Source: a virus
Lineage: Duplodnaviria > Heunggongvirae > Uroviricota > Caudoviricetes
Virus record (IMG/VR): IMGVR_UViG_2579779009_000001
Location: 1 to 36,215 of that record
Length of the DNA stretch: 36,215 nucleotides
Direction: 5' to 3' (one strand)
The notes under the pieces were generated by a model, which was not told where the DNA came from, made no database searches, and saw nothing but the letters and a program-made list of their open reading frames with translations. A program made the translations under genes and the position numbers. Position 1 is the stretch's first letter, and the number at the start of each line of letters is the position of its first letter. Shown here piece after piece: positions 4,171 to 14,719 of the stretch.

Positions 4171-4995
4171 TCAGGCGGTGAAAGTACCAATAAAGGTTTC
4201 TACTTTGCTGTCCTTGAATTTCTCAACAAGCAGATCACGAAATTCGTTAGCCATTTCTTCCTGCACCGCCTCCAGCTGAATAATGCGCAGAACCAGTACA
4301 GGACGATCGCCAGTGATAATACTGAGGCGTAATTTAAACGGACGTTCTTTCAGACCTTCAAACGGAACGCATTTAAATTCAAATGCCACTGGCATAATGT
4401 CTTTGGTCTTCGCTTCGACAGACTCCATCAGGGAGCGTTTGCCGCTGAAGTCATTATCTTCAAAATCAGCGGTCTGGTTTGCTTCAATCGTGATTTTACG
4501 GACAGCCGCAGCCGCTTTTGTTGCCTGAATAGCGTCACCATTAGCATCAAAGCCCACAAGATAGTCGGCCCAGTCTTCAATCCATTCTGCCAGTGACTTC
4601 TGGGAGTTACGCTCGCCGTTAACAGACAACAGAGCAGAGAACGGTGCTGTCTTTTTCAGTTTGAGTGTGGCGGTGTTATCTGCGTGACCTGGTTCATCAA
4701 TAGTACCCAGGTTAAGCACACTGACAGCACGCATATTATCAGCATCGATAAAGCAGCGGGTGCCTTCATCTGCAAGATCTTTAGAATAACGGGTAAAGTC
4801 ATCGATGCTGGCAGTGGAAAGCGCACCACGGAAACGGAAGCGATTTAAATTAAATTTTTCCAGATCATGAATGCGGAAATTCTCAGGCAATGCCACAGCA
4901 TCGGCACCAATCTTACTGATAATTTCATTAACACCCTGAGCAGAAATAAGGGCATGGATTTGATTAATTGCGGTTGCGTCTAAGTTCTGAGACAT
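4171..4995 (-). CDS. DUF2303/YfdQ-like phage protein (274 aa)
   Basis: ORF with GAGGA RBS; N-terminus [16 protein letters not shown] and length match my recollection of E. coli CPS-53 YfdQ. Confidence 0.7.
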
Positions 4996-5060
4996 AATAA
5001 GTCCTCACTATATTAAGATATTCAGTGATGAGATAAATAATCAGTTAATTAAGAACGATA

Positions 5061-5423
5061 TTAATGACCTGCTGCGCGGAGTTTTCCGTCAGGTTCACCG
5101 GCAAGAGTCAGTAATTGTCCCTGGTCTTCCTGCAGAATAGTCAGGCGACCACCGCGATTGACATACATCGGCGTTTCGGTAGTGTCTTCTTCGGAAATTT
5201 TCCCGCGGTTAGTTGGGCGAACATATGAGAGTTTGTGTTTGATTTTCACACGGTTCTCATCAAATGGTTCAATTTCTAGGTTGAGCGAGACCTTACCTTT
5301 GGTTTTCGTGTTCATCACACCGGAAGCGACTTCACTGAGAACTGCGCCGATTTTGGTTTCAAATACGCCGCCGTCCAGCTCCCCGATAAATGCCTGCACA
5401 TCAGTACTGCGTTCGCTAGCCAT
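5061..5423 (-). CDS. Hypothetical early-left phage protein (YfdP-like by position, 120 aa)
   Basis: Start at internal ATG (MASERSTDVQAF...) with AGGAGC RBS; the upstream 106 codons of the track ORF are R/P/C-rich and lie in a structured non-coding region. Confidence 0.65.
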   Translation of the reverse strand: MASERSTDVQAFIGELDGGVFETKIGAVLSEVASGVMNTKTKGKVSLNLEIEPFDENRVKIKHKLSYVRPTNRGKISEEDTTETPMYVNRGGRLTILQEDQGQLLTLAGEPDGKLRAAGH

Positions 5424-6852: not shown

Positions 6853-7929
6853 TTACTTTGTAAGTTCTAGAACTCGTTGAGCCAGCCCTTTAAATTGTTC
6901 GTTAAAGGCGTCTCTGCTTGATTTCATTGTATTTAAGGCATGCCCAAATTGCCCTGAATCGCGAATTTGCTGATCACTGATGGAGAAAACAGGTGTCGCT
7001 AGTTGTTGGCTTATTGCGATTAATGAGTTGAAATCGGAAATATGCGCAAGATCATAGGCTGATAAATCTCCACTGACTGTTGTTTTGTTAATTGCATGTT
7101 GCACTTTATCTCGTGGAATTATGCAGGTAATTTTTTCTAGATTTGGCACTAAGATCGAATCAACAGCATCACGGATAGCTGCCATCCATTTTTCGAAAGA
7201 TTTTACAGGTGCTCCTTTACGCGGCCTGTATCTCTGCTGAATCATACCTAGAAACTGCGGTGCATTTTTAATTGATTGTGAAGAGTTACCATCATTATTT
7301 TCTTTAAATAATGCTAATTCTTTGTGCCAGCGAGGTATATTTTTTGAGAGAGAGCGAATTGCTTGCCAGCAAAAAAAGTCTGGAGCTACAGGTACGATAA
7401 AATAGTCACTTGACATGAGAACTACTTCATTTAAACCTCCAACATTAGGGCTGAGATCATAAAGAATGTAATCAATATTATTCTTCAAGGCGATTAGCTG
7501 TAATATTTTTGGCAGGTTCCCTGGTATATTTCTTGTAGCAGGAATACCAGCAGCAATTTTTAGAGAAACACTTATCTGTGAATCTAAGTCCGAAACATCT
7601 AAATGTCCGGGAAGAAGCAGAAGGTTTTCATGCAGTGTAGGGTGTAATTTTCCCGTTTCTTTTTCAAGGTATGCTTCAGGTTGTCCGCCATTAATCAAAT
7701 ATTCTACAATAGGTCCAAGAGTTAAGTTATCTCTGCTAGAATAAAAAGAATCTAAACCCTCATCAATCTTTTCATAGCCAAGAACCATTCCTGTTAGATT
7801 ACATTGCGAATCAAGGTCAACCATCAATACTTTCTTGCCTTCATCCGCAAGTGCCCATCCAAGATTGAAGGTTGTTGTGGTTTTACTTACCCCACCTTTA
7901 TGATTAAAAAAACAAATTGATTTTGTCAT
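6853..7929 (-). CDS. ParA/MinD-family P-loop ATPase (358 aa) with extended C-terminal region; lone gene between OL and cI
   Basis: Deviant Walker A at residues 10-17 (NHKGGVSKTTTTFNLGWALADEGKKVLMVDLDSQ), Walker B-like YILYDLSP; AAGGA RBS; AT-rich by eye; same strand as and downstream of cI. No adjacent ParB-like gene. Confidence 0.8.
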   Translation of the reverse strand: MTKSICFFNHKGGVSKTTTTFNLGWALADEGKKVLMVDLDSQCNLTGMVLGYEKIDEGLDSFYSSRDNLTLGPIVEYLINGGQPEAYLEKETGKLHPTLHENLLLLPGHLDVSDLDSQISVSLKIAAGIPATRNIPGNLPKILQLIALKNNIDYILYDLSPNVGGLNEVVLMSSDYFIVPVAPDFFCWQAIRSLSKNIPRWHKELALFKENNDGNSSQSIKNAPQFLGMIQQRYRPRKGAPVKSFEKWMAAIRDAVDSILVPNLEKITCIIPRDKVQHAINKTTVSGDLSAYDLAHISDFNSLIAISQQLATPVFSISDQQIRDSGQFGHALNTMKSSRDAFNEQFKGLAQRVLELTK

Positions 7930-8099: not shown

Positions 8100-8804
8100 C
8101 TAAAGCCGGTTGTATTTAATTGATTCGTGTATCAATGCTTTGCCCATAACATAAAGTTGATCTTGGGACTTCTCATCAATGTACCATTTCTCATAGGCTG
8201 GATTATCCGAAAGAACGGCGAGTTTGTTGCCTTGCATTTGTAGACGTTTAACGTGGAACGTCTTACCATAAACGAAAGAGTAAACACCATCAGTTTGGAA
8301 GTTGCGAACAGAAATGTCGACAAACAGTCGATCTCCGGAAACTAGAGTAGGGGACATGCTGTCGCCATTTACAGTCATAACTTTAATATCATCTTGAGAA
8401 CGATTACCGAAAAGAGAACGGGCATGCTCTGTTGTGAACTCAATGGCGTAGAGCACATCAACATAGTCTGAAAGCATATAGGTCCCAGGTCCTGCGCTAA
8501 CGCTAAGATCCAAAACTTCTATCCTGTATACATCGGGTTTTGTTGGATTGGGGATGCTTGCCATTTCCTTACATCCTTCTCTCTCGCCAACACCATATTC
8601 TAAATATGAAGCTGATACCCCCAGAGCCAATGCAAGTTTATTCATGACAGAGGCACGAGGCTTCGCAGCGCCGATTGTGTATCGCCGCGCCATTTCATAT
8701 GTAACGCCCACAAGACTTTTGAGTTGGGTGACAGAAATTCCCTTGTTTGTCATTAGCTCGTTTAGTCTCTTGGCGAAATCTGGATACTTCTGTTCTTCTA
8801 CCAT
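8100..8804 (-). CDS. cI: CI-type prophage repressor (N-terminal HTH + C-terminal S24 LexA-like autopeptidase); start uncertain (8804, 8840 or 8861)
   Basis: HTH region (KRLNELMTNKGISVTQLKSLVGVTYEMARRY), S24-like C-terminus (MTVNGDSMSPTLVSGDRLFVD...KR); divergent from a cro-like gene; the 5' 57 nt of the track ORF contain operator repeats, so the 8804 start (MVEEQ...) is preferred. Confidence 0.85.
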   Translation of the reverse strand: MVEEQKYPDFAKRLNELMTNKGISVTQLKSLVGVTYEMARRYTIGAAKPRASVMNKLALALGVSASYLEYGVGEREGCKEMASIPNPTKPDVYRIEVLDLSVSAGPGTYMLSDYVDVLYAIEFTTEHARSLFGNRSQDDIKVMTVNGDSMSPTLVSGDRLFVDISVRNFQTDGVYSFVYGKTFHVKRLQMQGNKLAVLSDNPAYEKWYIDEKSQDQLYVMGKALIHESIKYNRL

Positions 8805-8842
8805 AGGTAGAAGATTACTCGCATCACATACGCTAGTCATTT

Positions 8843-8878
8843 CTATTTTAAGTAGTTGCATTTTGCTATTTTAAGTAG
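8843..8878. promoter_or_regulatory. OR-like operator repeats (two copies of CTATTTTAAGTAG) in the cI-cro divergent promoter region
   Basis: Direct read: tCTATTTTAAGTAGttgcattttgCTATTTTAAGTAGca; same half-site as the OL palindrome at 6616-6634. Confidence 0.6.
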
Positions 8879-10098: not shown

Positions 10099-11040
10099 AT
10101 GAGCACTAAATTAACCGGCTATGTATGGGATGGTTGCGCAGCGTCAGGCATGAAATTATCCAGCGTGGCAATTATGGCCCGCCTGGCTGATTTCAGTAAT
10201 GACGAAGGTGTGTGCTGGCCATCGATTGAAACCATTGCCCGCCAGATTGGCGCGGGGATGAGTACCGTCAGAACGGCTATCGCACGGCTGGAAGCAGAAG
10301 GCTGGTTAACGCGTAAGGCGCGTCGCCAGGGTAACCGCAATGCGTCGAATGTTTATCAGCTTAACGTTGCGAAGCTTCAGGCAGCGGCATTTTCTCAACT
10401 GTCAGATTCTGACCCGTCAAAATCTGACGCATCAAAATCTGACCCGTCAAAATTTGATGCGTCGAAATCTGGCAAAAAAGCGGGTTTTCACCCGTCAGAA
10501 TCTGGCGGGGATCCGTCAGTAAAATCAAAACATGATCCATCAGATAAAAAACCTTCTCGTCCGGACGCTTCGCAACCGGACACGCAGATGGATGAACAGG
10601 ATTTTTTAACTCGCCATCCTGATGCGGTTGTATTCAGCCCTAAAAAGCGCCAGTGGGGAACGCAGGATGATTTGACCTGCGCACAGTGGCTCTGGAAAAA
10701 AATCATCGCCCTGTACGAGCAGGCCGCCGAATGTGACGGCGAGGTGGTTCGTCCCAAAGAACCTAACTGGACAGCCTGGGCAAACGAAATTCGCCTGATG
10801 TGTGTGCAGGATGGTCGTACTCACAAACAAATCTGCGAGATGTACAGCCGCGTCAGCCGCGATCCGTTCTGGTGCCGTAACGTGCTCAGCCCGTCGAAGT
10901 TGCGGGAAAAATGGGATGAGCTTTCCCTGCGCTTATCGCCGTCCGTCAGCACGCACACAGAAAAACGCGAAGACCCGTACTTCAAAGCCAGTTACGACAA
11001 TGTGGACTACAGCCAGATCCCGGCGGGATTCAGGGGGTGA
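10099..11040 (+). CDS. Replication initiator (lambda O-like: N-terminal HTH, iteron-bearing middle, C-terminal domain)
   Basis: N-terminal HTH (ETIARQIGAGMSTVRTAIARLEAEGWL); low-complexity middle encoded by DNA iterons; position after cro/cII. Confidence 0.75.
   Translation: MSTKLTGYVWDGCAASGMKLSSVAIMARLADFSNDEGVCWPSIETIARQIGAGMSTVRTAIARLEAEGWLTRKARRQGNRNASNVYQLNVAKLQAAAFSQLSDSDPSKSDASKSDPSKFDASKSGKKAGFHPSESGGDPSVKSKHDPSDKKPSRPDASQPDTQMDEQDFLTRHPDAVVFSPKKRQWGTQDDLTCAQWLWKKIIALYEQAAECDGEVVRPKEPNWTAWANEIRLMCVQDGRTHKQICEMYSRVSRDPFWCRNVLSPSKLREKWDELSLRLSPSVSTHTEKREDPYFKASYDNVDYSQIPAGFRG
10401..10553. repeat. Iteron array plus adjacent A+T-rich tract (candidate phage origin) inside the replication initiator gene
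   Basis: At least six ~12-15-bp direct repeats of the form (C)CGTCAAAATCTGAC, followed by aaaatcaaaacatgatccatcagataaaaaa; encodes the DPSKSDASKSDPSKFDASKS repeat. Confidence 0.7.
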
Positions 11041-11042
11041 TC

Positions 11043-11531
11043 ATGAGTCTTTTGAATGACGTTCAGAAATTCATTGAAGCCCATCCGGGGTGTACTTCCG
11101 GAGACATTGCGGATGCTTTTGCAGGTTACTCACGGCAGCGCGTTCTGCAGTCAGCAAGCAAGTTACGTCAGAGTGGGCGTGTGGCTCACCGTTGTGAAGG
11201 AGATACACGCAGACATTTCCCGCGCCTGACTGAGAGAGCGCAGGAGCCGGAACCACAACCAGTTCGTGAAACCAGACCTGTGCGCAATTTCTATGTCGGC
11301 ACTAACGATCCACGGGTAATTTTGTGCCTGACCCGCCAGGCTGAAGAACTGGAGTCCAGGGGCTTATACCGTCGTGCTGCAACCGTGTGGATGGCGGCAT
11401 TCCGTGAAAGCCACTCCCAACCAGAACGAAACAATTTTCTGACGCGTCGTGAGCGGTGTTTACGGAAAAGCAGCAAGCGCGCTGCATCGGGTGAAGAGTG
11501 GTATCTGTCAGGGAATTACGTGGGGGCTTAA
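11043..11531 (+). CDS. Hypothetical protein, possible winged-helix (162 aa), in the position of a helicase-loader gene
   Basis: AGGGGG RBS then ATG at 11043; start abuts the O-like stop; Arg-rich basic protein; no recognisable DnaC/P motifs. Confidence 0.5.
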   Translation: MSLLNDVQKFIEAHPGCTSGDIADAFAGYSRQRVLQSASKLRQSGRVAHRCEGDTRRHFPRLTERAQEPEPQPVRETRPVRNFYVGTNDPRVILCLTRQAEELESRGLYRRAATVWMAAFRESHSQPERNNFLTRRERCLRKSSKRAASGEEWYLSGNYVGA

Positions 11532-12184
11532 TGAGTAATAAATATTGCCAGGCGCTGGTGGAACTGCGGAACAAACCAGCCCATGAACTGAAGGAAGTGG
11601 GCGATCAGTGGCGCACGCCGGATAACATTTTCTGGGGAATTAACACCCTGTTTGGCCCGTTTGTTCTGGATCTGTTCACTGACGGTGATAACGCCAAATG
11701 TGCTGCGTATTACACGGCGGAAGACAACGCGCTGGCGCATGACTGGTCAGAACGTCTTGCGGAGCTTAAAGGTGCTGCCTTTGGTAATCCCCCATACAGC
11801 CGCGCCAGTCAGCATGAGGGGCAATATATCACAGGCATGCGTTACATCATGAAGCATGCCAGTGCCATGCGTGATAAAGGTGGGCGCTATGTTTTCCTGA
11901 TCAAAGCTGCCACCAGCGAAGTGTGGTGGCCGGAAGATGCAGATCATATTGCTTTTATTCGCGGGCGTATCGGTTTTGAACTGCCTGCCTGGTTTATCCC
12001 GAAGGATGGGAAGCAGGTGCCGACAGGCGCTTTCTTCGCTGGTGCTATTGCTGTTTTCGACAAGACCTGGAAGGGACCGGCAATCAGCTACATCGGGCGC
12101 GATGAACTTGAGGCATGTGGTGAGGCCTTTCTGGCGCAGGTTCGCCTGCAGGCAGAAAAACTGGTCAGGGAGATGGCGGCATGA
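11531..12184 (+). CDS. Phage N6-adenine DNA methyltransferase (Dam-like)
   Basis: NPPY catalytic motif (AAFGNPPYSRASQ); start ATG overlaps the upstream stop (TAATG). Confidence 0.8.
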   Translation: MSNKYCQALVELRNKPAHELKEVGDQWRTPDNIFWGINTLFGPFVLDLFTDGDNAKCAAYYTAEDNALAHDWSERLAELKGAAFGNPPYSRASQHEGQYITGMRYIMKHASAMRDKGGRYVFLIKAATSEVWWPEDADHIAFIRGRIGFELPAWFIPKDGKQVPTGAFFAGAIAVFDKTWKGPAISYIGRDELEACGEAFLAQVRLQAEKLVREMAA

Positions 12185-12507
12185 CGAAGTTAACTCAATG
12201 CCAGCAGCAGGTGCTGGATATGCTGATTTCTTATCAGAAAGAACGTGGCTTCCCGCCAACCAATCAGGAAGTGGCAACGATGCTGGGATACCGTTCGGTG
12301 AATGCAGCGGTGGAGCATCTTCGCGCACTGGAGAAAAAAGGCGTCATCACGATAAAGCGTGGTGTGGCCCGGGGGATCACGCTTCATACCGCGGTGAAGG
12401 ACGACGACAGCGAGGCGGTCGGGATTATCCGCTCACTGCTTGCCGGTGAGGAAAACGCAAGGCTGCGTGCAACTCACTGGTTACATGAGAGAGGCCTGAA
12501 AGTATGA
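12181..12507 (+). CDS. LexA N-terminal DNA-binding-domain-only protein (108 aa, no S24 peptidase domain)
   Basis: Aligns along the whole LexA DBD: LTQCQQQVLDMLISYQKERGFPPTNQEVATMLGYRSVNAAVEHLRALEKKGVI vs E. coli LexA [53 protein letters not shown]; ends after ~35 further residues. Confidence 0.75.
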   Translation: MTKLTQCQQQVLDMLISYQKERGFPPTNQEVATMLGYRSVNAAVEHLRALEKKGVITIKRGVARGITLHTAVKDDDSEAVGIIRSLLAGEENARLRATHWLHERGLKV

Positions 12508-12893
12508 AGCTGATCCTGCCTTTCCCGCCCAGCGTGAACACGTACTGGCGACACCCCAACAAAGGGGCATTTGCTGGTAAGAGCCTGATAAGCGCGGCGG
12601 GGCGAAAATTTCAGAGCGCGGCGTGTGCAGCAATAGTTGAGCAGTTACGTCGTCTGCCAAAACCAACGTCGGCACCTGCTTCAGTGGAGATCGTGTTGTT
12701 TCCTCCGGATAACCGGATCCGCGATCTGGACAACTATAACAAGGCGCTGTTTGACGCCCTGACCCATGCGGGTGTGTGGGAAGACGACAGACAGGTGAAA
12801 AGAATGCTGGTGGAGTGGGGACCGGTTATCCCGAAAGGGAAGGTCGAGATCACTATCAGTAAGTATGAGAAACCGGCGGGTGCAGCCGCCTGA
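12504..12893 (+). CDS. rusA: RusA-type Holliday junction resolvase
   Basis: PFPPSVNTYWRH...DLDNYNKALFDALTHAGVWEDDRQV matches the RusA family; nin-region position. Confidence 0.85.
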   Translation: MKLILPFPPSVNTYWRHPNKGAFAGKSLISAAGRKFQSAACAAIVEQLRRLPKPTSAPASVEIVLFPPDNRIRDLDNYNKALFDALTHAGVWEDDRQVKRMLVEWGPVIPKGKVEITISKYEKPAGAAA

Positions 12894-12912
12894 TTAAGAG
12901 GAGAAACGAAGT

Positions 12913-13722
12913 ATGAATAATCTGATGGTCATTGATGGTATTGAAGTTCGTCGTGATGCTTATGGGCGTTACAGCCTGAACGATCTGCATCGCGCAGCAG
13001 TAGCATCTGGTGCAAATGCCAGAACCAAGGAGCCAGGAAAGTTTCTTTCCAGCCAACAAACTGTTGAGCTTGTTCATGAATTGACCAACACCCAGAATTT
13101 GGGTGTTGACCCGGTGAGTGTGATTCATGGGGGAAATGAACGGGGAACGTATGTCTGCAAAGAACTGGTGTATGCCTATGCAATGTGGATCAGCCCGTCA
13201 TTCCATCTGAAGGTGATCCGTACTTTCGATATGGTAACCAGCGCACCGGAAAAATTATCCGGGCAGGCTGCTGACAAGATGCAGGCTGGTGTGATTCTGC
13301 TGGACTTTATGCGCAGGGAGTTAAACCTGTCTAACTCTTCAGTGCTTGGTGCCTGTCAGAAACTCCAGGAGGCTGTTGGCTTACCGAATCTGGCACCGCG
13401 CTATGCCATTGATGCTCCTGCTGACGCGCCTGATGGCTCAAGCCGCCCCACGCTGTCACTGAGTGCACTGCTGAAGCAGTATGGTATCCGCCTGACAGCT
13501 AATCAGGCATATCACCAGATGGTGAAACTGGGGATCGTCGAACAGCGCGAACGATACAGCCGTACCGCGATTAACAACATCAAAAAATTCTGGTCGCTGA
13601 CGGCGAAAGGCTGCATGTTCGGCAAGAACATCACCAGTCCCGCAAATCCGCGCGAGACGCAGCCGCATTTCTTCGAATCCCGATTCCCTGAGCTGTTAAA
13701 GCTGCTCGATACCGTTCATTGA
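12913..13722 (+). CDS. KilA-N domain protein (possible antirepressor)
   Basis: N-terminal KilA-N-type segment (VIDGIEVRRDAYGRYSLNDLHRAA); GAGGAGAAACGAAG RBS. Confidence 0.7.
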   Translation: MNNLMVIDGIEVRRDAYGRYSLNDLHRAAVASGANARTKEPGKFLSSQQTVELVHELTNTQNLGVDPVSVIHGGNERGTYVCKELVYAYAMWISPSFHLKVIRTFDMVTSAPEKLSGQAADKMQAGVILLDFMRRELNLSNSSVLGACQKLQEAVGLPNLAPRYAIDAPADAPDGSSRPTLSLSALLKQYGIRLTANQAYHQMVKLGIVEQRERYSRTAINNIKKFWSLTAKGCMFGKNITSPANPRETQPHFFESRFPELLKLLDTVH

Positions 13723-13723
13723 G

Positions 13724-14719
13724 GTGACCGTGAGAGCACTACTGACCCCTGAAATTGCCCCGCGTATGGGGATCGTATTGTTCAGACCAGGTTCAGAGCT
13801 GATGCCCCTGTTTATGCAGGGGCGTGTCCTGCTGGAGCCTGAGCCGGAACGTTATTCATCTTTCGCCAGTGGTGCCGTTCCGGCGGCATCACAACCGCTG
13901 GCGGATGATCCTGCCGTTCGGGCAGTGTTCCGCAATGAGGCAGTGATTCGTCGTGCTGGTGGAGTGGAATGTCTTGAAAGCTGGTTACTTCGTGAAAAAG
14001 GCTGTCAGTGGCCTCATTCCGACTGGCACAGCGAGAACATGACCACAATGCGACACGCGCCGGGCGCAATCCGTCTGTGCTGGCACTGTGATAACCAGCT
14101 GCGTGATCAGTTCACGGAACAGCTGGAATCAATGGCAACGGATAACTGTGCCCGCTGGGTGTTGTCTGTCGTGCGCCGTGATCTCGGTTTTGATGACAGT
14201 CACGTTGTGACAATGCCGGAGCTGTGCTGGTGGCTGGTTCGTAATGATCTGGCGGATGCCTTACCGGAAAGTGCAGCCCGTAAGGCACTGAGATTACCGA
14301 AGCCTGTTGTGCCGTCTGTCACCCGGGAAAGTGACCTTGTGCCTTCGCTTCCTGCCACCAGCATCATCCAGGATAAAGCGAAAAAGGTGCTGGTGCTGAA
14401 AGTGGAGCCGGAGTCGCCGGAGTCTTTTATGTTACGCCCAAAACGTCGCCGCTGGGTTAATGAAAAGTACACGCGCTGGGTTAAGACACAGCCGTGCTCA
14501 TGTTGTGGAAAACCTGCTGATGATCCCCACCACCTGATAGGTCACGGTCAGGGGGGAATGGGTATAAAAGCGCATGACCTCTTTGTGTTGCCTTTGTGCA
14601 GAAAGCATCACGACGAGCTGCATGCGGATACCGTGGCATTTGAAGAAAAGTATGGCTCCCAGTTGGAGCTGATATTTCGTTTTATCGATCGTGCGCTGGC
14701 AATTGGCGTGCTGGCCTGA
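13724..14719 (+). CDS. DUF968-family protein with Cys/His-rich C-terminus; start uncertain
   Basis: C-terminal CSCCGKPADDPHHL...CRKHHDELH cluster; position between KilA-N and Q; GTG start in track. Confidence 0.6.
   Translation: MTVRALLTPEIAPRMGIVLFRPGSELMPLFMQGRVLLEPEPERYSSFASGAVPAASQPLADDPAVRAVFRNEAVIRRAGGVECLESWLLREKGCQWPHSDWHSENMTTMRHAPGAIRLCWHCDNQLRDQFTEQLESMATDNCARWVLSVVRRDLGFDDSHVVTMPELCWWLVRNDLADALPESAARKALRLPKPVVPSVTRESDLVPSLPATSIIQDKAKKVLVLKVEPESPESFMLRPKRRRWVNEKYTRWVKTQPCSCCGKPADDPHHLIGHGQGGMGIKAHDLFVLPLCRKHHDELHADTVAFEEKYGSQLELIFRFIDRALAIGVLA

Follow-up and report, generated by a model that had tools for sequence, protein, structure and literature searches.

The window analysed here, the whole 36,215-nucleotide stretch of IMG/VR virus record IMGVR_UViG_2579779009_000001, is a lambdoid prophage resembling SfV, SfII, SfIV and mEp460. 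Its early-right operon almost certainly holds an intact, selected and promoterless gene for a protein in which a LexA-type winged helix (residues 1-68) is followed by a conserved hairpin of about 30 residues, helix-turn-helix-like in form, in place of the S24 peptidase domain. Judged from the sequence, interference of this protein with the SOS response is plausible. The favoured reading, given a probability of about 0.4, is that the protein would serve as a RecA*-insensitive surrogate of LexA, dimerised through its tail and acting on SOS-type operators. The gene, which encodes the LexA DNA-binding domain (DBD) plus tail, and the parts of its product are the following.

12181..12507, + strand: LexA-DBD-plus-tail gene, 108 aa, ATG start, stop included (from the list of open reading frames, ORFs)
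12181..12384, + strand: LexA-type winged helix-turn-helix, residues 1-68 (Pfam, phmmer, AlphaFold, Foldseek)
12391..12402, + strand: acidic linker AVKD, residues 71-74 (disordered in both models, low confidence; predicted local distance difference test score, pLDDT, below 50 in both AlphaFold runs)
12403..12489, + strand: conserved two-helix tail, residues 75-103 (helices 75-88 and 93-103; AlphaFold pLDDT of about 90)

The N-terminal part matches the Pfam family LexA_DNA_bind (PF01726) from end to end (positions 1-65 of 65, E=1.2e-19, 70.3 bits against a cutoff of 23.7), and the Pfam scan of the 108-aa protein found neither Peptidase_S24 nor any other significant family. Against the PDB, phmmer aligned residues 2-69 with residues 2-69 of the E. 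coli LexA DBD (1lea, E=8.8e-16) without a gap; a hand count on that alignment gives 35 identical residues in 69 positions (51%). AlphaFold was run twice, with 12 close sequences and with 15 diverse ones, and the two models agree (mean pLDDT 81.6 and 85.1). They contain helices at residues 6-22, 28-35 and 40-52 and wing strands at 56-58 and 66-68, with R64 and G65 in the wing. Foldseek placed the modelled residues 1-68 on LexA structures with a root-mean-square deviation of 1.1-1.3 Å over 67-69 residues. The close alignment of the first ~70 residues to the LexA winged helix, which the first-pass annotation of this DNA had described, is borne out by all of these comparisons, and the segment that it had aligned, SVNAAVEHLRALEKKG, is correct and identical at 12 of 16 positions. 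The recognition helix reads S39 V40 N41 A42 A43 V44 E45 H46.

The protein ends 40 residues past the wing. It had been described as lacking an S24 autopeptidase and dimerisation domain, and this agrees with the missing S24 match and with the stop at residue 108, which rusA overlaps. As the S24 domain is absent, the protein cannot cleave itself as LexA does, in line with the earlier view that the protein would be non-cleavable. The phage protein is no LexA, since it lacks this domain and fails the equivalog cutoff of TIGR00498 lexA (71.6 bits against 110.95, covering only profile positions 1-91 of 203). Beyond the wing, residues 79-90 (AVGIIRSLLAGE) align with LexA 75-86 (GLPLVGRVAAGE) in both the phmmer and the TIGR00498 alignments. 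This puts A88-G89-E90 on the LexA cleavage site A84-G85-E86, a motif that is not conserved in distant members. The continuation of the alignment past the wing suggests descent from a lexA gene cut just after the hinge.

In Escherichia, Shigella, Citrobacter, Salmonella and Hafnia the protein has short homologues of 104-112 aa. When 1.84 billion representatives were searched with a profile, more short relatives came up at 38-49% identity, aligned through the tail, and full-length LexA with S24 appeared only at weaker scores (e.g. P0150, E=1.3e-17); a scan of genome contigs for related loci gave only 4. Invariant across the short relatives are L4, E30, S39, L50, K53, R64, G65, I66, A97 and L101, the last two within the tail, which is itself kept at 38-49% identity. 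Relatives of 104-135 aa retain the tail down to about 40% identity and the models predict a helical hairpin at a pLDDT of about 90, both of which mark the C-terminal tail, seen earlier as a possible dimerisation or interaction element, as a conserved element of its own. Two tandem LexA_DNA_bind domains without S24 were detected by Pfam in P0127, P0129, P0130, P0134, P0137, P0141 and P0146 from the representative search, and P0146 is fused to a 6-pyruvoyl-tetrahydropterin synthase domain. These tandem-domain proteins may represent the LexA head as a covalent 'dimer'.

The gene is under constraint. Its 82 full-length copies comprise 38 distinct alleles, every one intact, and differ by 43 synonymous and 11 non-synonymous changes, in a set picked by protein similarity and so biased toward low non-synonymous divergence (dN). 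Compared with the Citrobacter homologue, dN is 0.22 with synonymous divergence (dS) saturated. Between distant members dN is lower in the DBD than in the tail; dS is again saturated and only the ordering of dN is usable. The first-pass annotation had raised the prospect of a truncated pseudogene of a longer LexA-like gene, and this is ruled out by the intact alleles, the conserved length and tail and the overlap of the stop codon with rusA. Decay was seen sporadically, with P0025, P0034, P0081, P0109 and L009:211-533 (Shigella flexneri CP182557.1) frameshifted in the wing or tail or fused to neighbours.

The DNA of the gene is present at a coverage of at least 80% in 2223 of 5426 complete E. 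coli genomes, and 2233 (41%) contain any match. These copies are nearly all chromosomal and carry the annotation "LexA family transcriptional regulator". The gene was also found in 50 phage records. The SfV copy is orf42 ("unknown"), those of SfII and mEp460 are named "LexA DNA binding domain protein", and other carriers are SfIV, the cdtI phage and Shiga toxin (Stx) phages of the Stx2a, Stx2c and Stx2k types. PHROG 362, "transcriptional repressor", is matched at 1.3e-59 by residues 1-108 against positions 1-106 of a 106-position profile, and a survey of Stx phages includes a PF01726-only pham with function not assigned (PMC8136144). The gene had been treated as a fresh observation, which does not hold given this wide prior annotation (SfV orf42, mEp460, PHROG 362). 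No functional study of the enterobacterial family was found in the searchable literature, the coverage of which excludes subscription-only papers.

The immediate surroundings of the gene are listed below.

8100..8861, - strand: CI-type repressor, HTH_3 plus Peptidase_S24 (Pfam)
10099-11040: HTH_36 replication gene, to the right of CI; preceded by a CII-like gene, followed by a PerC-like gene and then Dam
11498..12184, + strand: Dam-type N6-adenine methyltransferase gene, directly upstream (Pfam Dam, 2.4e-45)
12167..12172, + strand: Shine-Dalgarno-like AGGGAG, 8 nt before the ATG of the LexA-DBD gene (read from the sequence)
12504..12893, + strand: rusA, Holliday-junction resolvase (Pfam RusA, 1.3e-14)
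12913-13722: KilA-N gene, after rusA
13724-14719: DUF968/HNH gene, after the KilA-N gene, with Q next

The order of replication gene, PerC-like gene, Dam, LexA-DBD gene, RusA, KilA-N, DUF968 and Q is nin-like, and the nin-like location assigned earlier is upheld by these neighbours. The start of the LexA-DBD gene overlaps the Dam stop codon (ATGA, 12181-12184) and its stop shares a second ATGA with the rusA start. Which gene lies upstream varies among relatives; rusA is the near-constant downstream neighbour in the subfamily of the window, with a -4 overlap in 89 of 90 loci. As neighbouring genes overlap or adjoin and a search upstream of the LexA-DBD gene gave no promoter-like site, this gene is most likely part of the early-right transcript and would be switched on by infection or once CI is cleaved. 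The CI at 8100-8861 is the prophage's own RecA*-cleavable switch. The presence of this separate repressor means that the LexA-DBD gene is not the immunity repressor. Next to cI, beside the low-GC immunity region, lies an unusual cargo gene for a ParA/AAA_31-type ATPase of 358 aa (6853-7929, - strand).

In the favoured reading, the gene product would appear only once CI has been cleaved or the phage infects, a time at which the cell's LexA is depleted. The helical hairpin would replace the C-terminal domain of LexA as the dimerisation element, and the dimer would occupy CTGT-type (SOS-box-like) operators as a LexA stand-in that RecA* cannot remove. Without the ...VAA C-terminus of cleaved LexA 1-84, the protein would also escape the ClpXP route. 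LexA-controlled promoters could then be repressed again or modulated, both those of host SOS genes and those of antirepressor and accessory genes of the same or rival prophages. Feedback on antirepressor operons and the suppression of rival LexA-dependent prophages would be further consequences. Kim and Little reportedly found in 1992 that the isolated N-terminal fragment of LexA still binds operators, and Neher et al. are said to have described in 2003 the removal of this fragment through ClpXP.

The residues that touch DNA are largely retained. The helix-3 contacts of LexA are S39, N41, A42, E44 and E45 (PMC3091678), N41 being reported also in PMC5999292. Four of the five, S39, N41, A42 and E45, are kept at collinear positions in the window protein, with V44 in place of E44. 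H46 and the wing residues R64-G65 are likewise identical to LexA, and P40 is replaced by Val.

A large branch of the family is, by its gene context, SOS-induced and shares its operons with further proteins that bind the SOS machinery or are fragments of it, which ties the family to SOS biology. This sister subfamily (P0132, P0133, P0135, P0148) belongs to Klebsiella-type prophages, with one member in Klebsiella phage Kp4865-4. Its proteins share 38-42% identity and the same tail, and carry an N-terminal extension of 30-60 residues; the prophages have DicA/RacR-like short repressors and YdaT. SOS boxes were scored with a position weight matrix (PWM) based on 20 known E. coli sites, which themselves score 13-27 bits. 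In all four of the first loci a terminator stands ahead of the operon, together with a sigma-70-like promoter and an SOS box that is nearly perfect (20.5-27.1 bits).

L093, 4560: SOS box ACCTGTACATTCATACAGTA, 20.5 bits
L094, 4561: SOS box TACTGTTTATATATACAGTG, 26.5 bits
L097, 513: SOS box TACTGTTTATTTATACAGTA, 27.1 bits
L098, 4242 and 4258 (4242-4277): tandem SOS boxes, 26.3 and 17.7 bits
L093:4713-4961, L094:4724-4951 and L097:797-1024 (GTG start in L097): PHROG 1813 small ORF, upstream of the LexA-DBD gene
L093:5405-5608: PHROG 1212 small ORF, downstream of the LexA-DBD gene

The SOS box is the only motif common to the four promoters, and the chance of a box of at least 20 bits in 700 bp of random sequence of the same composition is 5e-5. 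Among 113 further IMG/VR sister loci, 98 have a box of at least 18 bits within 1.5 kb upstream, in 28 distinct box sequences. The boxes concentrate in the -1000 to -500 bin (90 of 107 loci), compared with 0-3 in the bins outside 1.5 kb upstream. The operon runs from the SOS box through DinI or a RecA fragment, the PHROG 1813 ORF, the LexA-DBD gene, the PHROG 1212 ORF, in some cases RusA, and DUF968 to Q. Over 114 sister loci, DinI is present in 96, PHROG 1813 in 107, PHROG 1212 in 108 and DUF968 in 113, with RusA in only 10. The RecA fragment is a 95-aa ORF (L098:4310-4597) matching residues 248-325 of E. coli RecA at 1.6e-13 and Pfam RecA_C at 9e-10. It comes first among the genes of the SOS-box operon, occurs in 3 of the 114 loci and could be a decoy for the RecA filament. 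The PHROG 1813 ORF gave no PDB or Pfam match. The position of the sister genes within SOS-controlled phage operons suggests that the gene interferes with how the host responds to DNA damage. In L094 (8794-10357, - strand) an AcrVA2-like gene adjoins cas1 where the prophage region ends.

Several observations weigh against action of the window protein on SOS boxes. A scan of the window for SOS-box-like sites, as proposed in the first-pass annotation, gave nothing above chance by pattern or by PWM: there is no SOS box, the best PWM score being 8.9 bits against a mean maximum of 11.9 in shuffled sequence. The prophage therefore offers no canonical LexA site of its own. E44 of LexA is retained in no member of the family, and positions 42-45 vary, SVNTITGH being the Citrobacter form and SANGAFEH and SPNAAAEH those of other members. 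In most sister-subfamily proteins E45 is also replaced, helix 3 reading SSNAVLLH in 73 loci and SPNAVALH in 17; further readings in this subfamily are SPNAAAEH in 14 and SANAIAEH in 2. This variation counts because a family bound to the invariant host SOS box should conserve helix 3. An SOS-regulated operon, moreover, implies regulation by LexA and says nothing of SOS-box binding by the LexA-DBD protein. Finally, the characterised truncated LexA homologue gp6 of phage GIL01 binds a different palindrome and activates transcription (PMC6182141).

The pattern CTGT-N8-ACAG with at most one mismatch occurs 17 times in the window where 11 are expected, always inside ORFs. Its sole perfect instance, at 8359-8374 (CTGTCGCCATTTACAG) inside the CI/S24 ORF, is most likely due to chance, as it scores only 6 bits by PWM. 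Boxes were also counted in related loci that carry the LexA-DBD gene. Of 80 closely related IMG/VR loci, 41 have boxes of at least 18 bits no more than 8 kb from the gene. The boxes occupy three positions, namely the interior of a different cI allele, the methylase start beyond Q and the gap between rusA and KilA-N. The last position is occupied in five close relatives (L064:8765-8784, L032, L067, L068 and L087), where the box precedes a KilA-N-type gene, and this speaks for the favoured reading. The L064 box, TACTGTATTTATGAACAGTG, scores 21.3 bits; the same slot in the window (12894-12912) is a 19-nt spacer without a box.

The box within cI is represented by L014:5043-5062 (TACTGTTTTTACATACAGTA, 25.8 bits), inside a cI-like ORF (4579-5271, - strand) that encodes a CI-type repressor with a helix-turn-helix and S24. 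It is found also at L008:3103 and L010:1865 and in about 24 loci in total, with variants of 23.7-27.1 bits. At about 210 nt from the start, the box falls in the inter-domain linker, and diverged alleles have kept it. The third position is downstream of Q, where the box (T/C)ACTGTAAAAATAAACAGTG, of 20.5-22.5 bits, coincides with the start of an N6/N4 DNA methyltransferase gene or shortly precedes it (L015:13000-13019, in 25 loci, and L094:7739-7758). This placement suggests that the phage methylase downstream of Q is under LexA control.

It is possible, if rather doubtful, that the protein is instead a dedicated regulator in the manner of gp6. A LexA-derived domain would then have drifted to a phage-specific operator and would drive or repress a phage promoter, for example in late or accessory timing, with host SOS boxes not its target. 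The precedent is gp6, which is encoded in a LexA-repressed early operon and activates a late promoter from a non-SOS palindrome. The variability of helix 3 across the family also speaks for this reading, and so does the constant position of the LexA-DBD gene just upstream of the DUF968-Q late-control block. Set against this, no candidate operator was found: nothing convincing as a private operator lies near the gene in the window, and no conserved palindrome is present in the co-inherited module or the intergenic regions. The SOS box remains the one motif shared by the sister-subfamily promoters, and S39, N41, A42 and E45 are retained in the window protein but not in the gp6 helix, SHKTAHRY. 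Q antiterminators are, in addition, already present in these phages.

An improbable explanation is that of a protein-level SOS decoy, which would act through contact with LexA, RecA* or a protease and not through specific DNA binding, the tail, derived from the hinge and cleavage-site region of LexA, serving for example as a pseudo-substrate. The alignment to LexA and TIGR00498 does extend to position 86-91 and sets A88-G89-E90 on the cleavage site, and the sister operons carry other SOS fragments or binders in DinI and the RecA C-terminal domain. However, the AGE motif is lost in the more distant members, the tail is predicted to be helical, unlike the beta-hairpin of the LexA cleavage region, and conservation is strongest in the DBD and its DNA-contact positions.

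Quite improbable, too, is a role as an accessory of DNA metabolism, in which the protein would be no transcription factor but, for example, a DNA-binding partner that guides or holds back RusA or the genes for replication and methylation. The translational coupling of rusA in 89 of 90 subfamily loci, and its adjacency in several distant members, would suit such a partner. Yet none of the 80 loci of the largest sister group has rusA, and in L007 an opposite-strand gene separates rusA from the LexA-DBD gene. RusA in other phages is not known to need a partner, which was also counted against this role. An obligate partnership with RusA is rejected for the family as a whole, as only 10 of 114 sister loci have rusA. 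That the gene is a functionless, decaying remnant of a captured lexA is highly improbable, since the few frameshifted or fused copies (P0025, P0034, P0081, P0109 and the Shigella L009) stand against 38 of 38 intact alleles with their 43:11 ratio, a length and tail that different phage backbones keep down to about 40% identity, and a presence in 41% of complete E. coli genomes and in the viable phages SfV, SfII, SfIV, mEp460 and the Stx2 phages.

The favoured reading of a RecA*-proof LexA surrogate can be widened to a toolkit of host SOS fragments in temperate enterobacterial phages, made up of the LexA head, the RecA C-terminal domain and DinI. In this tentative and on the whole unlikely extension, the tail-dimerised, uncleavable LexA head would close the SOS boxes again after induction. 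It would thereby end the antirepressor burst, silence host SOS and block the induction of LexA-dependent rival prophages in polylysogens. If this were true, the gene would be a widespread determinant of SOS dynamics and prophage hierarchy, because it is carried by 41% of complete E. coli genomes, Stx2 phages included.

That the gene is annotated, and that a phage-encoded truncated LexA has a characterised precedent in GIL01 gp6, was already known. Added here are the probable status of the tail as a conserved, structured element, as judged from alignments and models, the constraint on the gene together with its very wide distribution, and the sister branch, the SOS-box operons of which also encode DinI or a C-terminal piece of RecA. 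About two-fifths of complete E. coli genomes have the gene, as do Shiga-toxin, cdt and Shigella serotype-converting phages. Should the LexA surrogate be real, it would change models of SOS induction, of antibiotic-triggered Stx phage induction and of competition between co-resident prophages, and would offer a compact natural tool for SOS repression. Should the protein have an operator of its own, it would be the second independent case, after GIL01 gp6, of a LexA head used as a private phage regulator.

Compared with E. coli LexA (1lea, 3jso, 1jhh), the phage protein has a collinear winged helix that is 51% identical and shares S39, N41, A42, E45, H46 and R64-G65. It differs in the absence of the S24/dimerisation domain, with Ser119 and Lys156 missing, in the two-helix tail of about 30 residues, in the changes of E44 and P40 to Val and in its score below the TIGR00498 cutoff. 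Its gene has no upstream SOS box in the window, whereas a counterpart of the LexA autoregulatory box is present upstream in the sister subfamily (98 of 113).

The autocleavage fragment LexA 1-84 is, similarly, a DBD alone. This fragment retains operator binding and residual repression, and in the host, where its ClpX degron (..VAA) is exposed, it is cleared. The phage protein differs in that it is predicted to run into a folded tail and ends in ..GLKV, and so it need not share this ClpX clearance.

The gp6 protein of GIL01 (Betatectivirus) activates the late promoter P3 from the site GaCACAnnTGTGaC (PMC6182141). It is likewise a phage-encoded LexA DBD without the catalytic domain, and its gene lies in a LexA-repressed operon, as in the sister subfamily. 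In contrast to the window protein, gp6 has 66 aa, no tail and a Gram-positive host; its recognition helix is K38-based, against SVNAAVEH, and its operator is non-SOS. A function has been demonstrated for gp6 and none for the enterobacterial family. The two proteins are related by hhalign at 96.7%, with 32% identity over the DBD only, and BLASTP gave no alignment between them. The window protein is not an orthologue of gp6 and stems from an independent capture.

The Gifsy prophages possess a LexA-controlled dinI-antirepressor-irsA operon (PMC3121763). The sister subfamily resembles it in having a terminator, an SOS-box promoter, dinI, a small GTG-start ORF and more genes before Q, at the same genome position. 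This layout is confined to the sister subfamily, as no homologues of DinI, PHROG 1813 or PHROG 1212 were found in the window, the prophage of which differs from Gifsy in using a cleavable CI and in having its LexA-DBD gene outside such an operon. The PHROG 1813 ORF occupies the position of the Gifsy antirepressor GftA and shows no obvious resemblance to it when compared by eye. Identity with IrsA was considered and rejected, the Gifsy-2 irsA homologue STM1020 being unrelated to the LexA DBD (hhalign probability 0.1).

The DinI homologues, GIL01 gp7 and plasmid PsiB likewise are small, belong to mobile elements and act on the LexA/RecA circuit, and DinI is co-operonic with the sister subfamily. 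These proteins act by binding RecA or LexA, whereas the phage protein has a sequence-specific DNA-binding fold.

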